Shown here: piece after piece, positions 5,742 to 60,377 of the stretch
Layout: each line of letters begins with the position of its first letter
Position numbering within the stretch: position 1 is the stretch's first letter
Notes under the pieces: model-generated
Seen by the model: only the letters and a program-made list of their open reading frames with translations
What the model was told of the DNA's origin: nothing
The model's database searches: none
Program-made: the position numbers and the translations under genes
NCBI GenBank assembly: GCA_964372275.1
Contig: CAYJRR010000004.1
Location: forward strand, 7,113-71,112
Length of the DNA: 64,000 bases
DNA from: an uncultured bacterium
GTDB lineage: Bacteria > CAYJRR01
Direction of reading: 5' to 3'

Positions 5742-5972
5742 GGCGGCCCCTCGGCGGACACGCACGCAAACCGCCCGATGTTCCAAAGGCGGGGTGAAGA
5801 CACGAAGGGACGGCGACACCAGCCGCTCGGATTCCGATCGGATTCCGGCCGGATACCGATCGGTTCGGATCGAGCCGGGTCGGACGCGGGAAGCCCTTTC
5901 TGTTCCGTGGGGTTCCGATCATGAGCAGGGTATATTCGTACCAGGGTCAGGAACCACGGGGTCGGAAGCCCT

Positions 5973-10707: not shown

Positions 10708-10711
<4 letters not shown>
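9134..10711 (+). CDS. HExxH metallopeptidase-like domain plus TPR-repeat protein (BatC-like position)
   Basis: GTG start at 9134 overlaps the upstream stop (GTGA). The N-terminal hydrophobic segment VTALALVLAATVSL is a likely signal or anchor. A LAHEYTHYVV (HExxH) motif is followed by C-terminal TPR-like helices. Confidence 0.65.
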
Positions 10712-11727
<1,016 letters not shown>

Positions 11728-11735
11728 TCAGAACT

Positions 11736-11851
11736 GAAAATGGAAAATGGAAAATGGAGAATTGAAAATGAAAATTGAGAATCACGGCGAACCAAGCCTG
11801 GCCCGGCATTGGCCGGTTTTCCATTTTCGATTTTCCATTTTCCATTTTCAG
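11736..11851. repeat. AT-rich heptamer-repeat palindromic element, copy 1: (GAAAATG)n - spacer - (CATTTTC)n
   Basis: Read directly from the sequence. Tandem GAAAATG/GAAAATT heptamers form the left arm. A GC-rich spacer of about 35 nt follows, then tandem CATTTTC heptamers as the inverted right arm. It lies between moxR and the DUF58 gene; a second copy is at 59644-59762. Confidence 0.8.
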
Positions 11852-11880: not shown

Positions 11881-12828
11881 ATGCCCGACCCCTCCCCGAC
11901 GCAAGCCCCCTCCCTCCTCGATCCCCGGGTGCTGGCGAAGATCACCAGCATGTCGCTCCTCGCCCGCTCGGTGGTGGAGGGGACGCTGACCGGGCTGCAC
12001 AAGAGTCCCCACCGCGGGACGTCGATCGAGTTCGCCGAGCACAAGGCCTACACGCCGGGGAACGAGATCCGCCACATCGACTGGAAGGTCTACGGCAAGT
12101 CGGAGAAGTACTACGTCAAGCAGTTCGAGGAGGAGACGAACCTCCGCTCCTGGATCGTCGTCGACGGATCGGGCTCGATGGGTTATGCCGGCGGCGACCG
12201 CGTTACCAAGCTCGACTACGCGCGGATGGTCGCGGCGAGCCTCGCCTACCTGCTGCTCGGACAGTCCGACGCCGTGGGACTGGCCACCACCGGCCGGGTG
12301 GCGCCGGCGGGCGAGAGCGCCCCCTCCGAGCCGGCGATGATCCCGGCGCGCGCATCGGGGACCCATCTGGCCGTCCTGTGCGATGCGCTCACCCGGCTTT
12401 TTCCCGGCGGCGCGCAGGCGGTCACCCCCGCGCTCGACCGGATCGCGGAGACGGTGCGGCGACGGGCGATGATCGTCGTCCTCTCCGACCTGTTGGAGGA
12501 TCCCGAACGGATCGGCCGCGCGCTGCGTCGGCTGGTTGGGCGCAAGCAGGACGTCGTCGTCTTCCACGTCCAGGACCCGGACGAGGTCGATCTTCCGTTC
12601 CGCGATCCGACCCGGTTCGTCGACATGGAGGGTCCGCTCGAGGTGATGGCCGATCCGCGGGCGATCCGCGCCTCCTACCGGAACGCGATGGGCGCGCACC
12701 TGGAGGCCCTCACCCGCGTCTGCCGCGTCTCCGGCATCGACTACCACCGGATGACCACCGACCGTCCGCTCGACCAGGCGCTGATCCGGTTCCTCGGCTG
12801 GCGGGCCAAGCTCGCGAGGGGGGCGTAG
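11881..12828 (+). CDS. DUF58 domain protein (MoxR-associated, vWA-like)
   Basis: ATG at 11881. The track's earlier start at 11809 would translate the repeat element. The motif HIDWKVYGKSEKYYVKQFEEET followed by DGSGSMGY is typical of DUF58. Confidence 0.8.
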   Translation: MPDPSPTQAPSLLDPRVLAKITSMSLLARSVVEGTLTGLHKSPHRGTSIEFAEHKAYTPGNEIRHIDWKVYGKSEKYYVKQFEEETNLRSWIVVDGSGSMGYAGGDRVTKLDYARMVAASLAYLLLGQSDAVGLATTGRVAPAGESAPSEPAMIPARASGTHLAVLCDALTRLFPGGAQAVTPALDRIAETVRRRAMIVVLSDLLEDPERIGRALRRLVGRKQDVVVFHVQDPDEVDLPFRDPTRFVDMEGPLEVMADPRAIRASYRNAMGAHLEALTRVCRVSGIDYHRMTTDRPLDQALIRFLGWRAKLARGA

Positions 12829-14904
12829 GTGGCGTTCGGCAACCCGCTGCTCCTCTGGGGGCTGCTCGCCGTCGCGGTGCCGCTGGCGATCCACCTCCTC
12901 CACCGGCGGCGGGCGAAGACCCTCCTCTTCCCGGCGATCGACTTCATCCTCCGCTCGCGGAAGGCGGTGCAGCGCCGGTTCCGCCTCAAACAGATCCTGT
13001 TGCTGGTGCTCCGATGCCTGCTCGTCGGAGCCGCCGCGTTCGCCGCGGCGCGGCCCCTGTTCCCCGGCAGCGACGCGGCGATCGGGCCGTCGGGCGAGCC
13101 GGCGGCGGTGGCGGTGATGATCGACCGGTCGTTTTCGATGCGCGCGCGCGCCGGCGGGGACTCGGCCTTCGACGAAGCGAAGCGCGCGGCCGAGGCGCTG
13201 ATCCGCGGCATGGGACCGGACGTCGAGGCGGTGCTCGTCCCGTTCGACGACGACGCGCGCGCCGTCCCGGCGGTCCCCACCGCCGACAAGTCGGCGCTGC
13301 TCGCCTCGCTCGCCGAGATCGCCGTCGGCTATCGCGGCACGAACCTGGCGCGCGCGACGGAGGTGGCGGCGCAGGCGATCGCCGGCAGCGAGAAGCCGCG
13401 CAAGACGGTCTATCTCTTCACCGACGGCGCGCGGGCGGGCTGGCAGGAGGTGGTCCCGCGGGATCCGGCCGACGGGATCGTCTGGCGGGTGGTCGACGTG
13501 CTCGGTCCCGTCCCGCCGAACGCCGCGGCGGCCCGCCTGGAGGTCCATGAGGAGGGGAGCGGCACGGCGGCGTCGGTGGAGGTGCGCTCGTTCGCGTCGG
13601 AGGCGCAGAACGGGCTCGCCGTCGAGATCGGGCTCGGCGATCGCCCCGCCGGCCGGAACTTCGTCGACGTGCCCGCCGGCGGATCGACGACCACGACCTT
13701 CACCCTCCCGGCCCCTCCGGCCGGCCTGAACGAGGCGGTGGCGCGGATCAGCCCCGACGCGCTCGCCGAAGACGACGCGCGCTTCGCCGTCTTCCGCGGA
13801 CGCGCCCGGGTGCGGACGCTGCTCGTCGACGGCGATCCGAAGACGACGATCCGCGATGCGGAGACCTTCTTCCTCGAACGGGCGCTGGCCCCCTCGCGCG
13901 CAGCCGGCGGCTCGGTGGCGCCGGTCGTCGTCGACGCCGAGGGTCTGTCGCGCGCCGATCTCTCCCGATTCGACGTGGTGGTGCTGGCCAACGTCGGGAC
14001 GCTCCCCTCGATGACGACAGCCGCGCTGAAGCGCTGGGTGCAGAACGGCGGCGGGCTGCTCGTCGCGGCGGGCGATCGGGTCGAGGCCGACGTCGCCAAC
14101 CTCGCCTTCGGGGAGCTCCTGCCGATGCGGCTGCGCGGGACGCGGTCGGCCGTTCCCAGCGCCTCGGAAGGGGGGATGGCGGCGCACGCGACCGCGCTCA
14201 CTCTCGCCCCGGTCGGTCCCGGCCACCCGGTGACGCAGGCGATCGACACCGGAGCCGCCGACGTCTTCGGTTCGGTCGCCTTCCGCACGGTGCTGCTGCT
14301 GGAGGGGGGGAAGGCGGAGACGATCCTCCGTTTCGCCGACGGCAGCCCGGCGCTGGTCGAGCGCACGCTCGGACGAGGCCGGGTCGCGCTGTTCGCCTCC
14401 TCCCTCGACCGCGAGTGGAACGACCTGCCGATCGCGACCGTCTTCCTGCCCCTGGCGCGACGCCTGGTCCGTTACCTGGCCGGCGAGCTCGGCGAGTCGG
14501 GATCGGTCGACCTGACGGTGGGACGGCCGGTGCAGATCGAGGTCGGCGTCGACCACAAGGAGATCCGTGTCGACGGTCCGACCCCCTTCCCCGCGGCCGT
14601 CGTCCCGGTGATCCAGGGGATCGCCGAGATCGTGCCGACCGAGCCCGGGATCTACCGCCTTTCGCGCGCCGACGCCCTCCCCGACGAACGACTCGCCTCG
14701 AAGGGGTTCGCCGTCAACGTCGACATCGCCGAGAGCGAGCTTCGCAACGTCGACGACGCCGAGATCGCGCGCGTCTTTCCGGGCTCCGAGTCGGAGCCGG
14801 TCGGCGGCACCGCGGGGAGCTCCCCCGACCGGCCGATGTGGACCGTCTTCCTGGCGGTGGCGCTGGTGGCGCTGATCGCCGAAGGGATGGTGACCGGCGC
14901 ATGA
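12829..14904 (+). CDS. BatA-like aerotolerance-type membrane protein with VWA domain
   Basis: GTG start at 12829 with a GAGGGGGG ribosome-binding site. The N-terminal BatA-type domain has two transmembrane helices (LLLWGLLAVAVPLAIHLL). A VWA-like MIDRSFSM region follows. Confidence 0.75.
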   Translation: MAFGNPLLLWGLLAVAVPLAIHLLHRRRAKTLLFPAIDFILRSRKAVQRRFRLKQILLLVLRCLLVGAAAFAAARPLFPGSDAAIGPSGEPAAVAVMIDRSFSMRARAGGDSAFDEAKRAAEALIRGMGPDVEAVLVPFDDDARAVPAVPTADKSALLASLAEIAVGYRGTNLARATEVAAQAIAGSEKPRKTVYLFTDGARAGWQEVVPRDPADGIVWRVVDVLGPVPPNAAAARLEVHEEGSGTAASVEVRSFASEAQNGLAVEIGLGDRPAGRNFVDVPAGGSTTTTFTLPAPPAGLNEAVARISPDALAEDDARFAVFRGRARVRTLLVDGDPKTTIRDAETFFLERALAPSRAAGGSVAPVVVDAEGLSRADLSRFDVVVLANVGTLPSMTTAALKRWVQNGGGLLVAAGDRVEADVANLAFGELLPMRLRGTRSAVPSASEGGMAAHATALTLAPVGPGHPVTQAIDTGAADVFGSVAFRTVLLLEGGKAETILRFADGSPALVERTLGRGRVALFASSLDREWNDLPIATVFLPLARRLVRYLAGELGESGSVDLTVGRPVQIEVGVDHKEIRVDGPTPFPAAVVPVIQGIAEIVPTEPGIYRLSRADALPDERLASKGFAVNVDIAESELRNVDDAEIARVFPGSESEPVGGTAGSSPDRPMWTVFLAVALVALIAEGMVTGA

Positions 14905-15653: not shown

Positions 15654-18046
15654 TCTCGCCGTCGAGCCTGCTCGCCAGGCTCGCCGGCGAGGACCCGGCG
15701 AGCTTCGACACGGTGCGGGTCTCGCTCGCCAGTCCCGTTCCGGGCTGGCTCTGTCTCCTGCTCGCGTTGTTTCTCGCGGCGGCGCTCTGGATCTCCTTCC
15801 GCGCGTCGTCCGACCTTTCGGCGCGGCGGCGTTCGATCCTCGCGGGATTGAGGGTCGCCGGCGGCGCCGCCGTCCTCGCCCTCTTCCTACAGCCCGAGCT
15901 TCGGCTCCTGAAGACGGCGAAGATCCCGACGCGCGCGGTGGTGATGGTCGACCTCTCGGCCTCGATGAGCGTCAAGGACGCGCCCGGCGAGGTCAGCCGC
16001 TGGACCTGGGCGCGCGACTACGCCGAGAAGCTGGCGGCGGCGCTCCGGCTCCGGGCGGTCGAGGTCACGGTGGAGACGGTCGCCTTCGACGAGGCGCCGC
16101 GACCGATGCCCCCCTCGGGCGAGTCGGCGAGCCTGGGGGCGGTGCCGGTGCCGAAGGTTCCGTGGGGACGCCGTACCGACGTGGGCGGGTCGCTCGCCGG
16201 CCTTCCGACGCGCCACCCCGGCGAGACGATCGCGGCGGTGGTCGTCGTATCCGACGGCGCCGACCACGGCTCATTGCAGCGCACACTGCGCGCGGAGCCG
16301 ACCCCGGAGCCGATCGGGCTGCTTGGCGGGGCGAAGGTCTACACGGCGCAGGCGGGGGACCCGGCTCTGTTCCGCGACGTCGGCGTCGGCGACCTCCGGG
16401 TCGACGACTTCGGCTTCGTCCACAACCCGGTCAAGGTCGAGGCGGAGATCGACGTCGTCGGCTACGACGGAAAGCGCGTTCCGGTGACGATCTCCTCCGA
16501 CCAGGGGGTGATCACCACCAAGACGGTCGTCGCCCGCGGCGGCAACCACCGCGAGAAGGTCGAGTTCGAGGTCACGCCGCGGCGCACCGGCACCTTCGTC
16601 TACACCGTCGCGACCAGCCGCTACGCCGACGAGTCGGTCGAGGGGAACAACAGCCGCCCGTTCGCCATCAAGGTGATCCGCGACAAGACGCGCGTGCTGC
16701 ACATCGCGGGGATGCCGTCGTGGGACGAGAAGTTCCTGCGGCAGCTGCTGAAGAACGACCCGAACGTCGATCTGGTCTCGTTCTTCATCCTGCGCACCCC
16801 CTACGACGTCAGCCAGTACCCCACCGAGGCCTACTCGCTGATCCCCTTCCCCACCGACGAGCTGTTCAACGAGCGGCTGTCCACCTTCGACCTCGTCGTC
16901 TTCCAGAACTTCACCTACCGGAACTACTTCGGCTACAACCAGAACCTCTACCTCTCGGCGCTGCGCGACTTCACCCGCAAAGGGGGCGGATTCGTGATGG
17001 TCGGCGGGGAGAACTCCTTCGGCGCCGGCCAATACGCGGGGACGCCGATCGAAGAGGTGCTCCCGGTCGACGTGCGCGGAGGAGCCGGGACCGGAGAAGG
17101 CTCGACCGATCCGTCGAGCTATCAGATGGCCCTCACCGAGGCGGGGAAGGTCCATCCGATCACCACGCTCGACTTCGACGCCGAGGCGAACGCCAAGCTG
17201 TGGGGCTCGTTGCCGCCGCTGCTCGGGTTCCACACCGACCTCGCGCCGAAGCCGGACGCCACCGTCCTCGGCGTGGTGCCGGGGCGGCGCTCGCCCGGCG
17301 GAGGGCCGCTGCCGGCGCTCGTCGTCCGGCGCGTCGGCGAAGGACGGTCGATGGCGCTCAACACCGACACCACCTGGCGCTGGAACTTCTCCAACGTCGG
17401 CGCCGGCGGCACCGCCGCCCCGTATCTGAAGTTCTGGCAGAACGCGATCCGCTGGCTGATCAAGGATCCCGACCTGAAGCAGGTGCGGGTGCTGCTCGAC
17501 AAGGACAACTACTTCGCCGGCGAAGTCGTGCACGCCAAGGTGGTGGCGGTCGGCAGCGGCTACCAGCCGCTCAAAGGGGCGAAGGTCGAGGTGCGGGTGA
17601 GCGCCGAGGCCGCGTCCGGCGCCGAGGGGGCGGAGTCCGAGCTTCCGCCGGTGCCGCCGGGACTGACCGGCGACTCGGGCGAGTACCGCTTCGAGCTCCG
17701 TCCCGGCGGACGCGGCATCTACCGCGTCCAGGCCGAGGTGCAGCTCCCGGATCGGGTCGTGGAGCGCGACGAGGCGATCTTCGCGTTCGAGACCGAGGAT
17801 CCGGAGCTGGAGCGCGCCTTCGTCGATCCCGCTTTCCTGAACGACCTGGCGCAACGCGGCGGCGGCAAGGTCCTCCCCCTCGATCCCAAGGCCGCCGCGG
17901 CCCAGATCGTCCTCCCGCCGACGCCGCCGGTGCGGATCGTCGGCGAGCGGCGCTTGGGCCTGTGGGATCGGCCGTTCGTGCTGCTGCTGGTGTTGGGAAT
18001 CGTGGCCACCGAGTGGGGCCTGCGCCGCCGGTGGGGACTGCTGTAG
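15650..18046 (+). CDS. large membrane protein with BatA-like N-terminus, VWA-like domain and GATase1-like (DUF1355-type) domain
   Basis: ATG at 15650 overlaps the upstream stop. N-terminal transmembrane helices, then VVMVDLSASMSVKD (VWA-like), then FVMVGGENSFGAGQYAGTPIEEVLPV (class-I glutamine amidotransferase-like fold), and a C-terminal transmembrane helix. Confidence 0.7.
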   Translation: MISPSSLLARLAGEDPASFDTVRVSLASPVPGWLCLLLALFLAAALWISFRASSDLSARRRSILAGLRVAGGAAVLALFLQPELRLLKTAKIPTRAVVMVDLSASMSVKDAPGEVSRWTWARDYAEKLAAALRLRAVEVTVETVAFDEAPRPMPPSGESASLGAVPVPKVPWGRRTDVGGSLAGLPTRHPGETIAAVVVVSDGADHGSLQRTLRAEPTPEPIGLLGGAKVYTAQAGDPALFRDVGVGDLRVDDFGFVHNPVKVEAEIDVVGYDGKRVPVTISSDQGVITTKTVVARGGNHREKVEFEVTPRRTGTFVYTVATSRYADESVEGNNSRPFAIKVIRDKTRVLHIAGMPSWDEKFLRQLLKNDPNVDLVSFFILRTPYDVSQYPTEAYSLIPFPTDELFNERLSTFDLVVFQNFTYRNYFGYNQNLYLSALRDFTRKGGGFVMVGGENSFGAGQYAGTPIEEVLPVDVRGGAGTGEGSTDPSSYQMALTEAGKVHPITTLDFDAEANAKLWGSLPPLLGFHTDLAPKPDATVLGVVPGRRSPGGGPLPALVVRRVGEGRSMALNTDTTWRWNFSNVGAGGTAAPYLKFWQNAIRWLIKDPDLKQVRVLLDKDNYFAGEVVHAKVVAVGSGYQPLKGAKVEVRVSAEAASGAEGAESELPPVPPGLTGDSGEYRFELRPGGRGIYRVQAEVQLPDRVVERDEAIFAFETEDPELERAFVDPAFLNDLAQRGGGKVLPLDPKAAAAQIVLPPTPPVRIVGERRLGLWDRPFVLLLVLGIVATEWGLRRRWGLL

Positions 18047-35353: not shown

Positions 35354-35776
35354 ATGGGTACCAGGCTTTTCGTCGGAAATCTTTCGTTCGGCACCACGGA
35401 GGAGACGCTCCGTGAGGCGTTCGCGGCGAACGGCCGCGAGGTCCGCGAGGTCTCGATCGTCACCGACCGCGACACCGGCCGTCCGCGCGGCTTCGGATTC
35501 GTCGAGATGAGCTCCAACGAGCACGCGCAGGCGGCGATCGCCGAGCTCGACGGCAAGAATCTCGACGGCCGTGCCATCAAGGTGAACGAAGCGCGCGAGC
35601 GCTCGTCCGGCGGCGGCGGGTTCGGCGGCGGACGCGGCGGATTCGGCGGCGGGGGCGGAGGCTACGGCGGGGGCGGCTTCGGCGGCGGCGGAGGCTGGGA
35701 AGGTGGCGGTGGCGGAGGCGGCGGGGGCGGCCGCGGGGGTCGCGGCGGTCGAGGAGGCGGAGGTCGGGGTCGGTGA
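35354..35776 (+). CDS. glycine-rich RNA-binding protein (RRM domain)
   Basis: ATG at 35354 with a GAGGAAGGTGGG ribosome-binding site. The RNP2 motif is LFVGNL and the RNP1 motif is RGFGFVEM. The C-terminal tail is Gly/Arg-rich. Confidence 0.85.
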   Translation: MGTRLFVGNLSFGTTEETLREAFAANGREVREVSIVTDRDTGRPRGFGFVEMSSNEHAQAAIAELDGKNLDGRAIKVNEARERSSGGGGFGGGRGGFGGGGGGYGGGGFGGGGGWEGGGGGGGGGGRGGRGGRGGGGRGR

Positions 35777-42766: not shown

Positions 42767-42806
42767 TTGACATGCTACGCACATGTGAGCATGCTATGCA
42801 CATGTC
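42767..42806 (+). promoter_or_regulatory. putative vapB promoter/operator: TTGACA -35 hexamer overlapping two 17-nt direct repeats (CATGCTAyGCACATGTs), each ending in the palindromic half-site ACATGT
   Basis: Read directly from the sequence, immediately upstream of the RHH antitoxin start codon. Confidence 0.5.
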
Positions 42807-43035
42807 GAAGATGATTCAGATCCGAAACGTCCCCGACGAGGTCCACCGTCGGCTGAAGGCTCGAGCGGCAGAGGCGGGGATGACGCTTTCCGATTACCTG
42901 CGCAGGGAGGTCACGGAGGTCGCGCGCCGTCCCACCGTTCACGATCTCGTGGAGCGGCTCCGCTCGCGCACCGCGGTCCACCTGCCGACCAGCGCCGCGT
43001 CCGCCGTCCGAGAGGAGCGGGACCTTCGCACGTGA
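42802..43035 (+). CDS. vapB: ribbon-helix-helix antitoxin (VapB/FitA-like)
   Basis: MSKMIQIRNVPDEVHRRLKARAAEAGMTLSDYLR is a typical RHH antitoxin. In-frame ATGs at 42796 and 42811 are alternative starts. Confidence 0.75.
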   Translation: MSKMIQIRNVPDEVHRRLKARAAEAGMTLSDYLRREVTEVARRPTVHDLVERLRSRTAVHLPTSAASAVREERDLRT

Positions 43036-43430
43036 CCGTCCTGGACGCCTCTGTCGTGGTCGACCTCCTCCTGCGATCGACGCGCGATTTCGACGCCGTA
43101 GCCGCCCGCATCGCGGCGGAGGCGCCGCGACTCGCGGCGCCGCACCTGCTGGATGCCGAAGTGGCCCAGGTGCTGCGCCGATTCGTGCGAAGCGGCGACC
43201 TCTCGCCGTCGCGTGCGACGGAAGCGCTGATCGATCTCGACGGGCTGCCCGTGACCCGCTATCCGCACCTTCCGCTCCTTCGGCGGGCGTTCTCCCTGCG
43301 GGAGAACGCGACGATCTACGACGCGCTCTACCTGACCCTCGCCGAGGCGCTCGGCGGTCCGCTTCTGACGCGGGATCGCGCCCTCGCCTCGGTCCCCGGC
43401 CATCGCGTGCGGGTCGAGGTCTTGTCCTAG
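43032..43430 (+). CDS. vapC: PIN-domain toxin VapC
   Basis: GTG at 43032 overlaps the vapB stop. The N-terminal LDASVVVDLL carries a PIN acidic residue. 132 aa. Confidence 0.75.
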   Translation: MTVLDASVVVDLLLRSTRDFDAVAARIAAEAPRLAAPHLLDAEVAQVLRRFVRSGDLSPSRATEALIDLDGLPVTRYPHLPLLRRAFSLRENATIYDALYLTLAEALGGPLLTRDRALASVPGHRVRVEVLS

Positions 43431-57614: not shown

Positions 57615-58885
57615 CGCGGATCGCGATCGTCGGGGCGGCGTTGGCCCTTCCCGACCGGATGCAGCCGGACGGCGTGCTCGTGGTCGAGGAGGGGCGGGTC
57701 GCGGCCGCCGGCAGCCGGAGCGCGGTGCCGATCCCGCGGGGCGCCGCCCGGGTCGACGCGCGAGGGTTCGTGCTCGCCCCCGGGTTCGTCGACCTCCACG
57801 TGAACGGGTTCGGCGGCGTCGACTGCTTCGGGGCAGGGAAGGACGACCTGGCGCGCATGGGCCGCTCGCTCGTGGCGACCGGGGTCACCAGCTTCTTCCC
57901 GACGCTCGTCACCTCCCCCTTCCCCGCGCTGTGCCGGGCGTTGGCCCAATTGGCCGACGGCGTCGAGGCGAAGCCGGTCGCCGGCAGCGCGGAGGCCGCC
58001 GGCGTCTACCTCGAGGGTCCGTTCCTCGCCGACGGCGCGCGCGGCGCCCATCCCTCGCAGGACCTCCGGGCCCCGCGCGCCGAGACGGTTCGGCAGCTCC
58101 TCGAGTTGAAGGGTTCGAAACCGTGGATCGTCGCGATCTCCCCGGAGCTGCCCGGCGCCTTCGATGCGATCCGGACCTTCGCGCGCAAAGGCGTCGTCGT
58201 CGCGCTCGGGCACTCGGTCGCGGACGCGGAGTCCTGCCGGCTCGCGGTCGCCGCGGGGGCGCGCCACGTCACCCACCTGTACAACGCCATGGGACCGATC
58301 CACCACCGCCTGCCTGGGCTTGCCGGATTCGCGCTCGGCTCGGGGATGGTGACGGCCGAGCTGATCGCCGACGGACATCACGTCGACCGCTGGATGGTCG
58401 CGACCGCCTGGCGGGCGATCGGTGCCGACCGGCTGGCGCTCGTCTCCGACGCCCTGGCGCCGGCCGGACTGCCGCTCGCCGACGGCGCCGGCTACCGGCT
58501 CGAATCGGGCCTCGGCCGGGTGACGGTCCGTCGCGCTCCGGCCGACCGCGTGTCGCCCGCGGCCGCCGCGGCGCCGGTCGCCGTGGCCGCGAACGGCAAG
58601 CTTGCCGGCTCGCTCGCATCGCTCGCCGACGGCGTTCGCTTCGCCGTGCACGCCGCCGGGATCCCGCTGCACGACGCCCTGCGGATGGCGTCGGCGACCC
58701 CCGCACGGATCGGCGGGATCGCGAACCGGAAGGGATCGCTGATCCCGGGCCTGGACGCCGACCTCGTCCTGCTCGACGGTGGCCTCGAGGTGCGCTCGGT
58801 CTGGGTACGCGGCCGGCCGGTCGAACCGATCGCACCCGCGACCGGCCGGCAGCCGCCGCGCGCACGGCGGAGGGCCGCGCGATGA
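57611..58885 (+). CDS. nagA: N-acetylglucosamine-6-phosphate deacetylase
   Basis: GTG at 57611 overlaps the upstream stop. GFVDLHVNGFGG is the amidohydrolase metal-binding motif of NagA. 424 aa. Confidence 0.8.
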   Translation: MTRIAIVGAALALPDRMQPDGVLVVEEGRVAAAGSRSAVPIPRGAARVDARGFVLAPGFVDLHVNGFGGVDCFGAGKDDLARMGRSLVATGVTSFFPTLVTSPFPALCRALAQLADGVEAKPVAGSAEAAGVYLEGPFLADGARGAHPSQDLRAPRAETVRQLLELKGSKPWIVAISPELPGAFDAIRTFARKGVVVALGHSVADAESCRLAVAAGARHVTHLYNAMGPIHHRLPGLAGFALGSGMVTAELIADGHHVDRWMVATAWRAIGADRLALVSDALAPAGLPLADGAGYRLESGLGRVTVRRAPADRVSPAAAAAPVAVAANGKLAGSLASLADGVRFAVHAAGIPLHDALRMASATPARIGGIANRKGSLIPGLDADLVLLDGGLEVRSVWVRGRPVEPIAPATGRQPPRARRRAAR

Positions 58886-59634
58886 AGCCGCTGATCGGCC
58901 TGGCGATGGACGTGGAGGACGGGCGCGGCCCGCGCAAGAGCGCCGATCCGACGACCTTCGTCTTCGTGAAGGTCCCCTATGTCGACCGGATCCTCGAAGC
59001 CGGCGGAGCGCCGATCCTTCTCGCGCCGGTCGCCGACGACGCGGTGATCGAGCGCCTGCTCGCCGCGCTCGACGGTCTGGTCGTCACCGGGAGCGGGATC
59101 GACATCCCGGCCGAGATGTACGGGCACGCGCGCCACGAGAAGATCGGTCGCCTGTTGCCCGCCAAATCGGAGTTCGAGGTCCGGCTCATCCGGCGCGCGA
59201 CGGCCCTCGATCTCCCCTTCCTGGGGATCTGCAACGGGATGCAGGCGATGAACGTCGCCTACGGCGGAACGCTGTTCCAGGACCTCCCGTCGGAGCTGGG
59301 GGTGGAGCACGCCGTCGAGAACGCCACGCGACCCTGCCATCCGGTGTCGATCGCCGCCGGCACGCGCCTCCATGCCGTGCTTGGACGCACCCGCTGCGAG
59401 GTGAATTCGTCGCACCACCAGGCGGTGCGCGACGTCCCGGCGGCGCTCGTCGTTTCCGCGCGCGCAGGCGACGGGGTGATCGAAGGGGTCGAGGACCCTA
59501 CGCGTGAGTTCGCGGTGGGGGTGCAGTGGCACCCCGAGCTGATCCCGGAGCACGCAGGGACTCGTTCCCTCTTCGAGGCGTTGATCCGCGCCGCAAGCGA
59601 TCGCGCGAGCCGAGCCGAGCGGCGTCGCGGGTGA
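58882..59634 (+). CDS. class-I glutamine amidotransferase-like peptidase C26 (gamma-glutamyl hydrolase family)
   Basis: ATG at 58882 overlaps the nagA stop. Catalytic Cys in GICNGMQ; His/Glu in GVQWHPE. Confidence 0.75.
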   Translation: MKPLIGLAMDVEDGRGPRKSADPTTFVFVKVPYVDRILEAGGAPILLAPVADDAVIERLLAALDGLVVTGSGIDIPAEMYGHARHEKIGRLLPAKSEFEVRLIRRATALDLPFLGICNGMQAMNVAYGGTLFQDLPSELGVEHAVENATRPCHPVSIAAGTRLHAVLGRTRCEVNSSHHQAVRDVPAALVVSARAGDGVIEGVEDPTREFAVGVQWHPELIPEHAGTRSLFEALIRAASDRASRAERRRG

Positions 59635-59643
59635 CGAAACCCG

Positions 59644-59763
<120 letters not shown>

Positions 59764-59786
59764 GGCTGCGCATTTTCGCAGTCTCG

Positions 59787-60377
59787 ATGGCGCTCCTGAT
59801 GCCCGGCTGCCCGAAGGAGGAGGCTTCGACGCGCGCGACGCCGGCCCCCGCGGTCTCCCCATCCCCCTCGCCCGCGCCGACGATCCCCGGCCCGCCGCCG
59901 ACGCCCTCCCCGCTGACCGGCGTGCCGGCGGCGCCCGCCGACGTCGTCCGCTACGAGTGGAGTGGTGGACTCTCGATCTACGAGTACTACCGGCTCGCGA
60001 TCGAGCGCACGGCGACCGGGGGTGTCGCGACCTTCGTGGTGAAGCCGCATCGCGCGCCGGAGGCGACGGTGACCGACACGCTCCCGGACGACGAGGTCAC
60101 CGCGTTGCGAAAACTGCTCGACGAGGTCCGTTTCGCGGAGGCGAAGACCGAGCCGCGGAAGATGCGCGTCCTCGACGTCGGCAACACGGTCCTCACCTGG
60201 GAACGGAACGGATCGGTCGTCAACCAGGTGACCGAGAGTCCGACGGAGGTCGCCAGCCGCGATCTGCGTCCGCTCCGGCAGTGGCTGGAGGCGAAGGTCC
60301 GCCGGTACCTCGAACGGGCCGGCGCCGCCCACGGCCGCGAGGGGGGGCGCGACGAAAAGCCCGCTACCCCCAAATAG
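59787..60377 (+). CDS. lipoprotein, hypothetical (first of two tandem paralogues)
   Basis: ATG at 59787 gives only MALLMPGC before the lipobox Cys. The real start may be a non-ATG codon inside the repeat element. The product is paralogous to the next gene. Confidence 0.5.
   Translation: MALLMPGCPKEEASTRATPAPAVSPSPSPAPTIPGPPPTPSPLTGVPAAPADVVRYEWSGGLSIYEYYRLAIERTATGGVATFVVKPHRAPEATVTDTLPDDEVTALRKLLDEVRFAEAKTEPRKMRVLDVGNTVLTWERNGSVVNQVTESPTEVASRDLRPLRQWLEAKVRRYLERAGAAHGREGGRDEKPATPK

Follow-up and report, generated by a model that had tools for sequence, protein, structure and literature searches.

The DNA analysed here is a 64-kb stretch from an uncultured bacterium (the window), in which a heptamer array occurs at two sites lying 48 kb apart and built on a common plan, that is a (GAAAATG)n array, then a GC-rich spacer and then an inverted (CATTTTC)n array. 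Copy 1 (11734-11851, in window coordinates as throughout) lies between moxR (AAA_3/bpMoxR; 10708-11727) and a DUF58 gene (11881-12828), the next gene being batA (BatA; 12829-14904); these flanking genes are those given in the original prediction. Copy 2 (59641-59765), for which a like architecture had been claimed at 59644-59762 and is confirmed here, lies between a peptidase C26/glutamine amidotransferase gene (58882-59634) and a lipoprotein-like ORF. The four flanking genes all lie on the + strand. For an acyl-CoA dehydrogenase encoded nearby, the best named relatives are labelled "MAG: Myxococcales bacterium" (71-77% identity) and the host is therefore an uncultured myxobacterium-like organism.

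Anatomy and folding of the two elements

In both copies, a TGA stop precedes the palindrome by exactly 6 nt, and GGAAAAT reads on the sense strand of the upstream gene. In copy 1, the stop is that of moxR (11725-11727, + strand) and the left arm (11734-11782) presents a G-rich, C-free strand in mRNA sense; Tandem Repeats Finder (TRF) reports 5.9 units of GAAAATG at 11736-11775, the three outermost being perfect and the sequence degenerating inwards (GAGAATT, GAAAATG, AAAATTG, AGAATC). The GC-rich spacer (11783-11816) holds a terminator-like hairpin, CTGGCCCGGCATTGGCCGG, at 11798-11816, directly followed by the T-rich right arm (11817-11851), an inverted complement of the left arm with 4.7 units of TTTTCCA at 11817-11849. 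The inverted arms proper (11734-11768 and 11817-11851) measure 35 nt, are 91% complementary and enclose 48 nt. The 115-bp block originally described as (GAAAATG)n is not a single array, but is divided between left array, spacer and right array (about 47, 34 and 35 nt, respectively). Besides, the right arm had been placed immediately 5' of the next start codon and in fact ends 29 nt before the DUF58 ATG (11881).

In copy 2, the stop belongs to the peptidase C26/class-I glutamine amidotransferase gene (59632-59634, + strand). The left arm (59641-59700) consists of 7.9 alternating GAAAATG, AAAAATG and GGAAATG units (59646-59700 by TRF) with ATGs at 59676 and 59697 in frame with the lipoprotein gene. 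The spacer, tccgaaccgtccgcctccgaa (59701-59721), is devoid of a terminator-like hairpin and of significant similarity to the spacer of copy 1. The right arm (59722-59765) combines five perfect ATTTTCC units (5.0 copies at 59729-59763 by TRF) with two degenerate inner units, and abuts the signal-peptide codons of the lipoprotein gene (RLRIFAVSMALLMPGC). Here the inverted arms (59641-59684 and 59722-59765) measure 44 nt, are 86% complementary and enclose 37 nt. Over all four arrays, TRF matches range from 87 to 100%. On direct reading, the arms of either element are not mirror images unit by unit, and the two copies differ from one another in arm length and in unit variants.

Searching the window for the two-unit 14-mer GAAAATGGAAAATG with at most two mismatches returned 20 matches where 0.05 were expected, all 20 within the two elements, and exact GAAAATG or CATTTTC was found nowhere else in the 64 kb. 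With a GC content of 28% in the two left arms against 70.5% for the window, the next lowest 60-mer being at 45%, the elements are also its most AT-rich spots. Together with the TRF calls and the complementarity of the arms, the excess of matches confirms the paired heptamer palindrome as claimed. As for an assembly artefact, named at the outset as one of the findings that would overturn the prediction, the independent Logan assembly of ERR4904390 reproduces the junction of copy 2 and the first 41 nt past the stop before breaking inside the array, which speaks against an artefact of the assembly of the metagenome-assembled genome (MAG). Both elements are real, non-random, dispersed blocks.

Fold prediction gives long hairpins at both copies (RNA, -45 to -58 kcal/mol), in agreement with the long AT-rich hairpin put forward originally. 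For copy 1, the predicted RNA energies are -57.6 kcal/mol (+ strand, z = -6.2) and -50.7 (- strand), those of copy 2 being -44.9 (+) and -54.2 (-), with z-scores from -3.8 to -6.2 across both copies and strands; as DNA, the z-scores are -6.9 for copy 1 and -2.7 for copy 2. Regarding the candidate functions, that of a terminator is plausible for one copy only. In copy 1, a consensus scan picks out the apical GC hairpin (11798-11816) followed by TTTTCCATTT as terminator-like, i.e. a predicted internal GC hairpin then a T-run, for 0.6 expected by chance in the region, and the same scan finds none in copy 2. A promoter or UP element is not borne out, the consensus scan of both regions revealing no sigma-70-like -35/-10 site at either copy. 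Nor is a small RNA: no Rfam family matched the elements at its gathering threshold, and what matches there were, with generic miRNA precursor models of long hairpins and with NsiR8, stayed far below it. The NsiR8 match (a Nostoc nitrogen-stress sRNA; 59575-59803, overlapping copy 2), at 23.7 bits for a gathering threshold of 61, is probably a generic hairpin or repeat resemblance. Some further recognition motifs were considered and rejected, namely CsrA (GGA) or Hfq (ARN) motifs by reasoning, as the GGA would be paired within the stem, ARN is out of register and CsrA is missing from several host phyla, and by reading a DnaA-box or sigma-54 resemblance, which extends to 7/9 positions only or has the wrong spacing.

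Derived state of the junctions and the lipoprotein start

In five relatives with a 66-73% identical DUF58 protein, the gap from the moxR stop to the DUF58 start is -8, -1, +11, +6 and +3 nt, a spacing that would amount to translational coupling, against 153 nt in the window; it is 54 nt in a further relative (L129, 66% identical DUF58). At the site of copy 2, the gap is 32-35 nt in three relatives (67-69% identical) against 152 nt in the window. Both gaps being far longer than in the relatives, the insertion between genes that had been proposed is supported with respect to them, and this comparison of homologous junctions shows both elements to be derived states, whether inserted or expanded, copy 1 having apparently split a translationally coupled operon. 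At copy 1, 35 nt of the extra DNA fall outside the palindrome. No seed sequence for the arrays is visible in the junctions of the relatives, and the spacers have no significant similarity to plain intergenic regions of those relatives (p = 0.03-0.08). With local alignments that are not significant, the idea of a core that is conserved, or orthologous to the relatives' plain intergenic DNA, was rejected.

On direct reading, (GGAAAAT)n is without stop codons in all six frames and offers an ATG in each of the three forward ones. The first property lets long ORFs run into the elements, as had been observed from the outset, and the two together make a start of the lipoprotein gene inside the element possible. 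Such stop-free arrays mislead ORF callers, which matters for annotation. At copy 2, an ORF (59676-60377, + strand) beginning at an in-frame ATG in the left arm crosses loop and right arm, over both of which the lipoprotein frame stays open, and continues into the lipoprotein gene. In three relatives (L126-L128), the lipoprotein at this site begins with M, then 15-19 aa, then SGCPKE, and the residues RLRIFAVSMALLMPGC of the window, which directly adjoin the right arm, align with the signal peptides of these proteins. The first in-frame ATG after the array (59787) leaves just MALLMPG, i.e. 7 residues, ahead of the lipobox Cys when a signal peptide needs more, and the only canonical in-frame starts giving a full signal peptide are the ATGs at 59697 and 59676, both in the left arm. 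Copy 2 has thus probably displaced the native start codon of the lipoprotein gene, the start now lying within the element or at a rare codon. Over 59676-59789, the peptide encoded by the loop and the (CATTTTC)n arm, before the native signal peptide, would read MIRTVRLRNFEFSIFHFPFSIF. When compared with phase-variable contingency loci, the right arm of copy 2 is found inside the sole canonical-start ORF that gives a full signal peptide. Of note, a one-unit change in copy 2 would shift the lipoprotein frame, as in phase-variable surface proteins.

Heptamer arrays in other genomes

Among long simple repeats, heptanucleotides are the most over-represented in many bacterial genomes, and their origin and function have stayed unexplained since the first description of such repeats in cyanobacteria in 1990. 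The elements had been presented as novel, and this cannot be maintained, since paired convergent heptamer arrays 3' of ORFs are already described in Xanthomonas and Nostoc (PMC4692102) and heptamer repeats more generally elsewhere (PMC4679880). In Xanthomonas, about 185 arrays of GGGAATC occur per genome, 89-93% of which are intergenic, the mean distance being 28 nt to the upstream and 160 nt to the downstream ORF, mostly between co-directional genes and rarely between divergent ones; 70-75 convergent pairs per genome are able to form stem-loops, the G-rich strand prefers the coding strand downstream of ORFs, and the contexts of the repeats are more conserved than control intergenic regions, while the number of units varies between species and no function was found (Rehm et al., 2015; PMC4692102). 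The Xanthomonas GGGAATC and Nostoc GGGGA(T/C)T repeats resemble the present elements in having 7-nt tandem units (GG(G)A.T), roughly 90% of them intergenic, near the upstream ORF end, with a G-rich sense strand and convergent pairs (PMC4692102). The present elements, of which two copies are found in the 64 kb covered, differ by an AT-rich unit having two G only and by a myxobacterial MAG as host.

The elements of the window share with this kind the tandem 7-nt units, the intergenic position near the upstream ORF end, the G-rich sense strand and the convergent arrays, while the tract of at least three G per unit that marks the G-quadruplex (G4) sub-class is absent, GGAAAAT having GG only. With only two G in the unit, the G-quadruplex idea is inapplicable here, and an AT-rich unit unable to form such a structure argues against a G4 explanation of heptamer repeats. 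Judged by their sequence, the elements are members of the paired convergent intergenic heptanucleotide simple sequence repeat (SSR) kind and not of its G4 sub-class; the pair is not a new class, nor is it a MITE or a REP. The locus thereby adds a clean case of heptamer repeats in a GC-rich myxobacterium, the second copy of which is apparently absorbed into a signal-peptide coding region.

Heptamers of this general kind are also known from Nostoc/Calothrix. Two other published groups invite comparison. The cyanobacterial STRR and the LSSR5-11 repeats (Mazel, 1990; Mrazek, 2007), as cited in PMC4679880 and PMC4692102, are likewise dispersed intergenic tandem heptamers; their units and hosts are different, and their descriptions are not known to include a paired inverted plan or an anchoring at stop codons. 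They are proposed to originate by slippage of the polymerase and not by the extension of short repeats (PMC4679880, PMC4692102). In most genomes, heptanucleotides outnumber all other long repeats, which may reflect how long a stretch of DNA the polymerase holds (PMC4679880). In Beggiatoaceae, TAACTGA is also a genome-specific heptamer with many intergenic sites, a strict gene orientation and a scattered cross-phylum distribution, for which a post-transcriptional role was proposed, but its arrays lie just 5' of start codons, contain stops and form inverted pairs in 1/170 sets (MacGregor, 2015; PMC4679880).

Scanning one genome per species for (GAAAATG)3 gave at least 120 stretches, in over ten phyla including Acidobacteriota, Planctomycetota, Bacteroidota, Ignavibacteria, Clostridia and the candidate phyla radiation. 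Among the matches listed, 111 arrays are not at a contig edge, 28 of which have an inverted partner within 160 nt and 83 of which are solitary; since three quarters of the arrays can form no hairpin, the hairpin cannot be the primary reason for such arrays. Within the same matches, 21 of the paired arrays have the purine-rich array first, as here, and 7 have the reverse order, the composition control giving 4. A cross-phylum family of GGAAAAT elements was rejected: (GAAAATG)3 accounts for 15 stretches in viral contigs against 14, 12 and 42 for three permutations of the same composition, and many period-7 units co-occur. The occurrence of the unit in several phyla is thus best read as independent origin. 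In 813 kb of fetched loci, period-7 arrays number 294 against 34, 16 and 20 for periods 8, 10 and 11, and, in 342 kb chosen without regard to repeats, 29 against 8, 3 and 12. As many period-7 units dominate, the phenomenon is that of heptamer repeats in general.

Gene calls in 120 loci relied on a crude longest-ORF method, which stop-free arrays confuse, and the stop-codon statistics consider only stops closing an open frame of at least 100 codons. On this basis and among the matches listed, solitary (GGAAAAT)n arrays lying within 7 nt of such a stop are oriented in sense in 13 cases and in antisense in 1, and the stop is often part of the first degenerate unit, e.g. TAAtgGAAAATGG. In 276 arrays of period 7, a stop of this type occurs within 12 nt of 77 array sides; where the unit is other than GGAAAAT, G exceeds C on the sense strand in 30/43 of these stop-adjacent arrays, C amounting to 11%. 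In paired elements, the purine-rich arm comes after the stop and the pyrimidine-rich arm before the next start, so that the whole gap is filled. Seeding by a duplicated start-codon region (ATGGAAA...) was considered and discarded, as it fits the array of L013 and an 11-mer array of L263 but otherwise there is often no start for hundreds of nt.

The moxR-DUF58 junction proved to be recurrently occupied. Among metagenomic DUF58 homologues of another lineage (37-40% identical), the gap is usually 1-25 nt, and in about 10/46 loci it is taken up by 24-145 nt of different short repeats, frequently arranged in inverted pairs. These are a (CAAAATG)/(CATTTTG) pair in L162 (palindrome at 2651-2796) and L150 (6797-6895), a (CAGCTNT)/(AGCTGAN) pair in L151 (3400-3494) and an octamer pair in L139 (1639-1725), L140 (5210-5307) and L172 (9906-9988), to which solitary arrays of (TTGGGAG), (GGTAGCT) and (GGTAGTT) are to be added. 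The repeat palindrome of L150 measures 99 nt where L155 and L165, with 94-95% protein identity, have a 1-nt gap. Between L140 and L172, the DUF58 proteins of which are identical, one octamer unit is different in each arm, a symmetric change seen in this single strain pair; L144 and L146 differ in one array only, which speaks against symmetric change of the arms as a rule. Some rules emerge from the survey as a whole: arrays begin at stops, their sense strand is C-poor, one junction is repeatedly occupied and changes by whole units occur between near-identical strains.

As a separate observation, two near-identical Myxococcales strains differ in the copy number of an 11-mer, AATGAGCTGCG, with 4.8 copies at 11758-11810 in L263 and 5.8 at 11758-11821 in L264; this array starts 8 nt past the stop of an acyl-CoA dehydrogenase gene and its last unit holds the ATG of the next gene. 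A second G-rich array near 16620-16690 in these strains is also length-variable.

Origin and possible roles

On balance, we lean with restrained confidence towards convergent heptamer arrays that would have arisen locally around a GC-rich core, rather than from a transposed master copy, and that would act as an intercistronic RNA hairpin. The element would consist of (GGAAAAT)n on the sense strand after the stop and of (ATTTTCC)n before the next gene, on either side of a local GC-rich core. The arrays may arise and change length by replication slippage. Their inverted partner may be made, and kept similar, by quasi-palindrome template switching, in which the nascent strand would copy one arm from the other; this is an established mutational mechanism, by which inverted repeats are lengthened and made more alike and a spacer can be inverted (PMC7202029, PMC8604942). 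Since solitary arrays follow stops and are sense-oriented, template switching is proposed to account for the 3:1 excess of the purine-rich-first order.

In the polycistronic mRNA, the arms would pair into an A-U-rich stem of 35-44 bp, looping out some 120 extra bases in such a way that the upstream stop and the downstream start would remain close. The stem could form an intercistronic barrier that shields the upstream cistron from 3' exonucleases and partly attenuates or decouples the downstream one. In copy 1, the apical GC hairpin and the U-rich right arm would make up a canonical terminator-like module, the A- and U-tracts of a terminator having possibly expanded into arrays, while in copy 2 the stop-free array would have become part of the lipoprotein gene at its 5' coding end. 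We infer the slippage and template-switch origin as well as every functional effect at the RNA level. By functional analogy, the closest counterparts may be the REP and BIME elements, which also place a stable stem-loop between cistrons near the upstream stop, though the present elements have tandem-array arms and unique spacers and are without a conserved REP sequence. In E. coli, REP stem-loops are able to protect the upstream mRNA and to modulate the ratio between cistrons.

Another possibility, which we consider clearly less probable than the local origin with an RNA-level role, is that the arrays are a neutral or selfish by-product of the replisome, without function, and survive where they are least harmful, that is after stops, stop-free and self-pairing. 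The unit is not special, as seen from the viral stretches of its permutations, arrays come and go between relatives 94-100% identical, the arms are not mirrored unit by unit and the published studies found no functional role (PMC4692102), all of which a by-product would explain. It would hardly explain the strong strand and position bias relative to stops, the repeated occupation of one operon junction in several lineages, the use of one unit by both copies of the window or the contexts of the Xanthomonas repeats, which are reported to be more conserved than controls (PMC4692102). On the matter of the unit, two copies with a like AT-rich unit, 48 kb apart at 70% GC, are poorly explained by growth from random seeds; the reuse of the unit at distant sites points to a genome-specific factor, either dispersal or a unit-specific binding partner.

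A further reading is that the elements are, as first suggested, mobile and REP/MITE-like, i.e. non-autonomous MITE, REP or REPIN-like elements using the heptamer arrays as terminal inverted repeats and a transposase encoded elsewhere, and two copies with a like unit and architecture, each 6 nt past a TGA and each an insertion relative to relatives, would suit such elements, as would the adjacency of the arrays to a repeated GC-rich element in the Phycisphaerales MAG CSMAG_1437. The spacers, however, are unrelated: those of copies 1 and 2 have one 6-mer in common (p = 0.36 against shuffles), and the four paired or near-paired (GGAAAAT)n sites of a complete Pyrinomonadaceae chromosome, inspected by eye, likewise have spacers without evident likeness. 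Because the two spacers are unrelated, the elements are not MITEs or REPs with a copied core. Of the features expected from a MITE (common internal sequence, terminal inverted repeats and target-site duplication), the full set is not found, no target-site duplication being evident at the flanks of either copy, and the arms are variable tandem arrays rather than the conserved palindrome of a REP or REPIN. Considering also that arm lengths and unit variants differ between the copies, that most arrays in other genomes are solitary and that 35 nt of the extra DNA of copy 1 lie outside the palindrome, a mobile element is very unlikely. In CSMAG_1437 (L004, L010, L015 and L091), (GGAAAAT)n adjoins a GC-rich repeat of about 50 nt, gtttagcggcgacaa.tccgtagcgtttagcggc...ggggagcg, which is possibly a small dispersed repeat in its own right.

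As to a binding partner, the arrays might be binding sites for a heptamer-reading protein, such as a cold-shock-domain or S1-like protein seated once every 7 nt on the U-rich RNA or single-stranded DNA arm, or a nucleoid protein with affinity for AT-rich DNA in a GC-rich genome, the hairpin being a switch opened by the protein. In line with this, a genome-specific unit common to dispersed sites is also a trait of Xanthomonas, Beggiatoaceae and Nostoc (PMC4692102, PMC4679880, 10.1101/2022.06.06.494920), deletion of heptamer repeats at the recO promoter of Nostoc altered the output of a reporter (10.1101/2022.06.06.494920) and, according to PMC4679880, CspB of B. subtilis binds T-rich heptamers, one per protein. 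Units differing widely between and within genomes, and the weak sequence specificity of the binding proposed, are difficult to reconcile with such a reader, which makes it the least probable of the explanations weighed here. Broader in scope, and doubtful, is the idea that stop-anchored arrays constitute a general strand-specific cis-regulatory layer in many phyla, in which a G-rich, C-poor array would insulate the post-stop gap, e.g. against Rho loading, or seat a protein reading 7 nt, the paired form would be a switchable hairpin setting the ratio between cistrons and the unit of each genome would be fixed by a trans-acting partner.

Besides the heptamer elements, other features were noted in the window. 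At 42768-43430, a small ORF (MIQIRNVPDEVHRRLKARAAEAGMTLSDYL...) and a 132-aa ORF are closely preceded by TTGACA and, after it, two direct copies of CATGCTAYGCACATGT, an arrangement that by eye looks like a toxin-antitoxin pair of the vapBC/fitAB type with its operator. Between two divergent ORFs, an 11-nt tandem repeat, CCGATCGGATT, is present in 4.6 copies (5823-5872). A 201-nt tandem duplication (1.9 copies, 75% match) at the left edge (52-436) and a long GGC-rich tract with a 9-nt period (35608-35763) are each probably a coding repeat.
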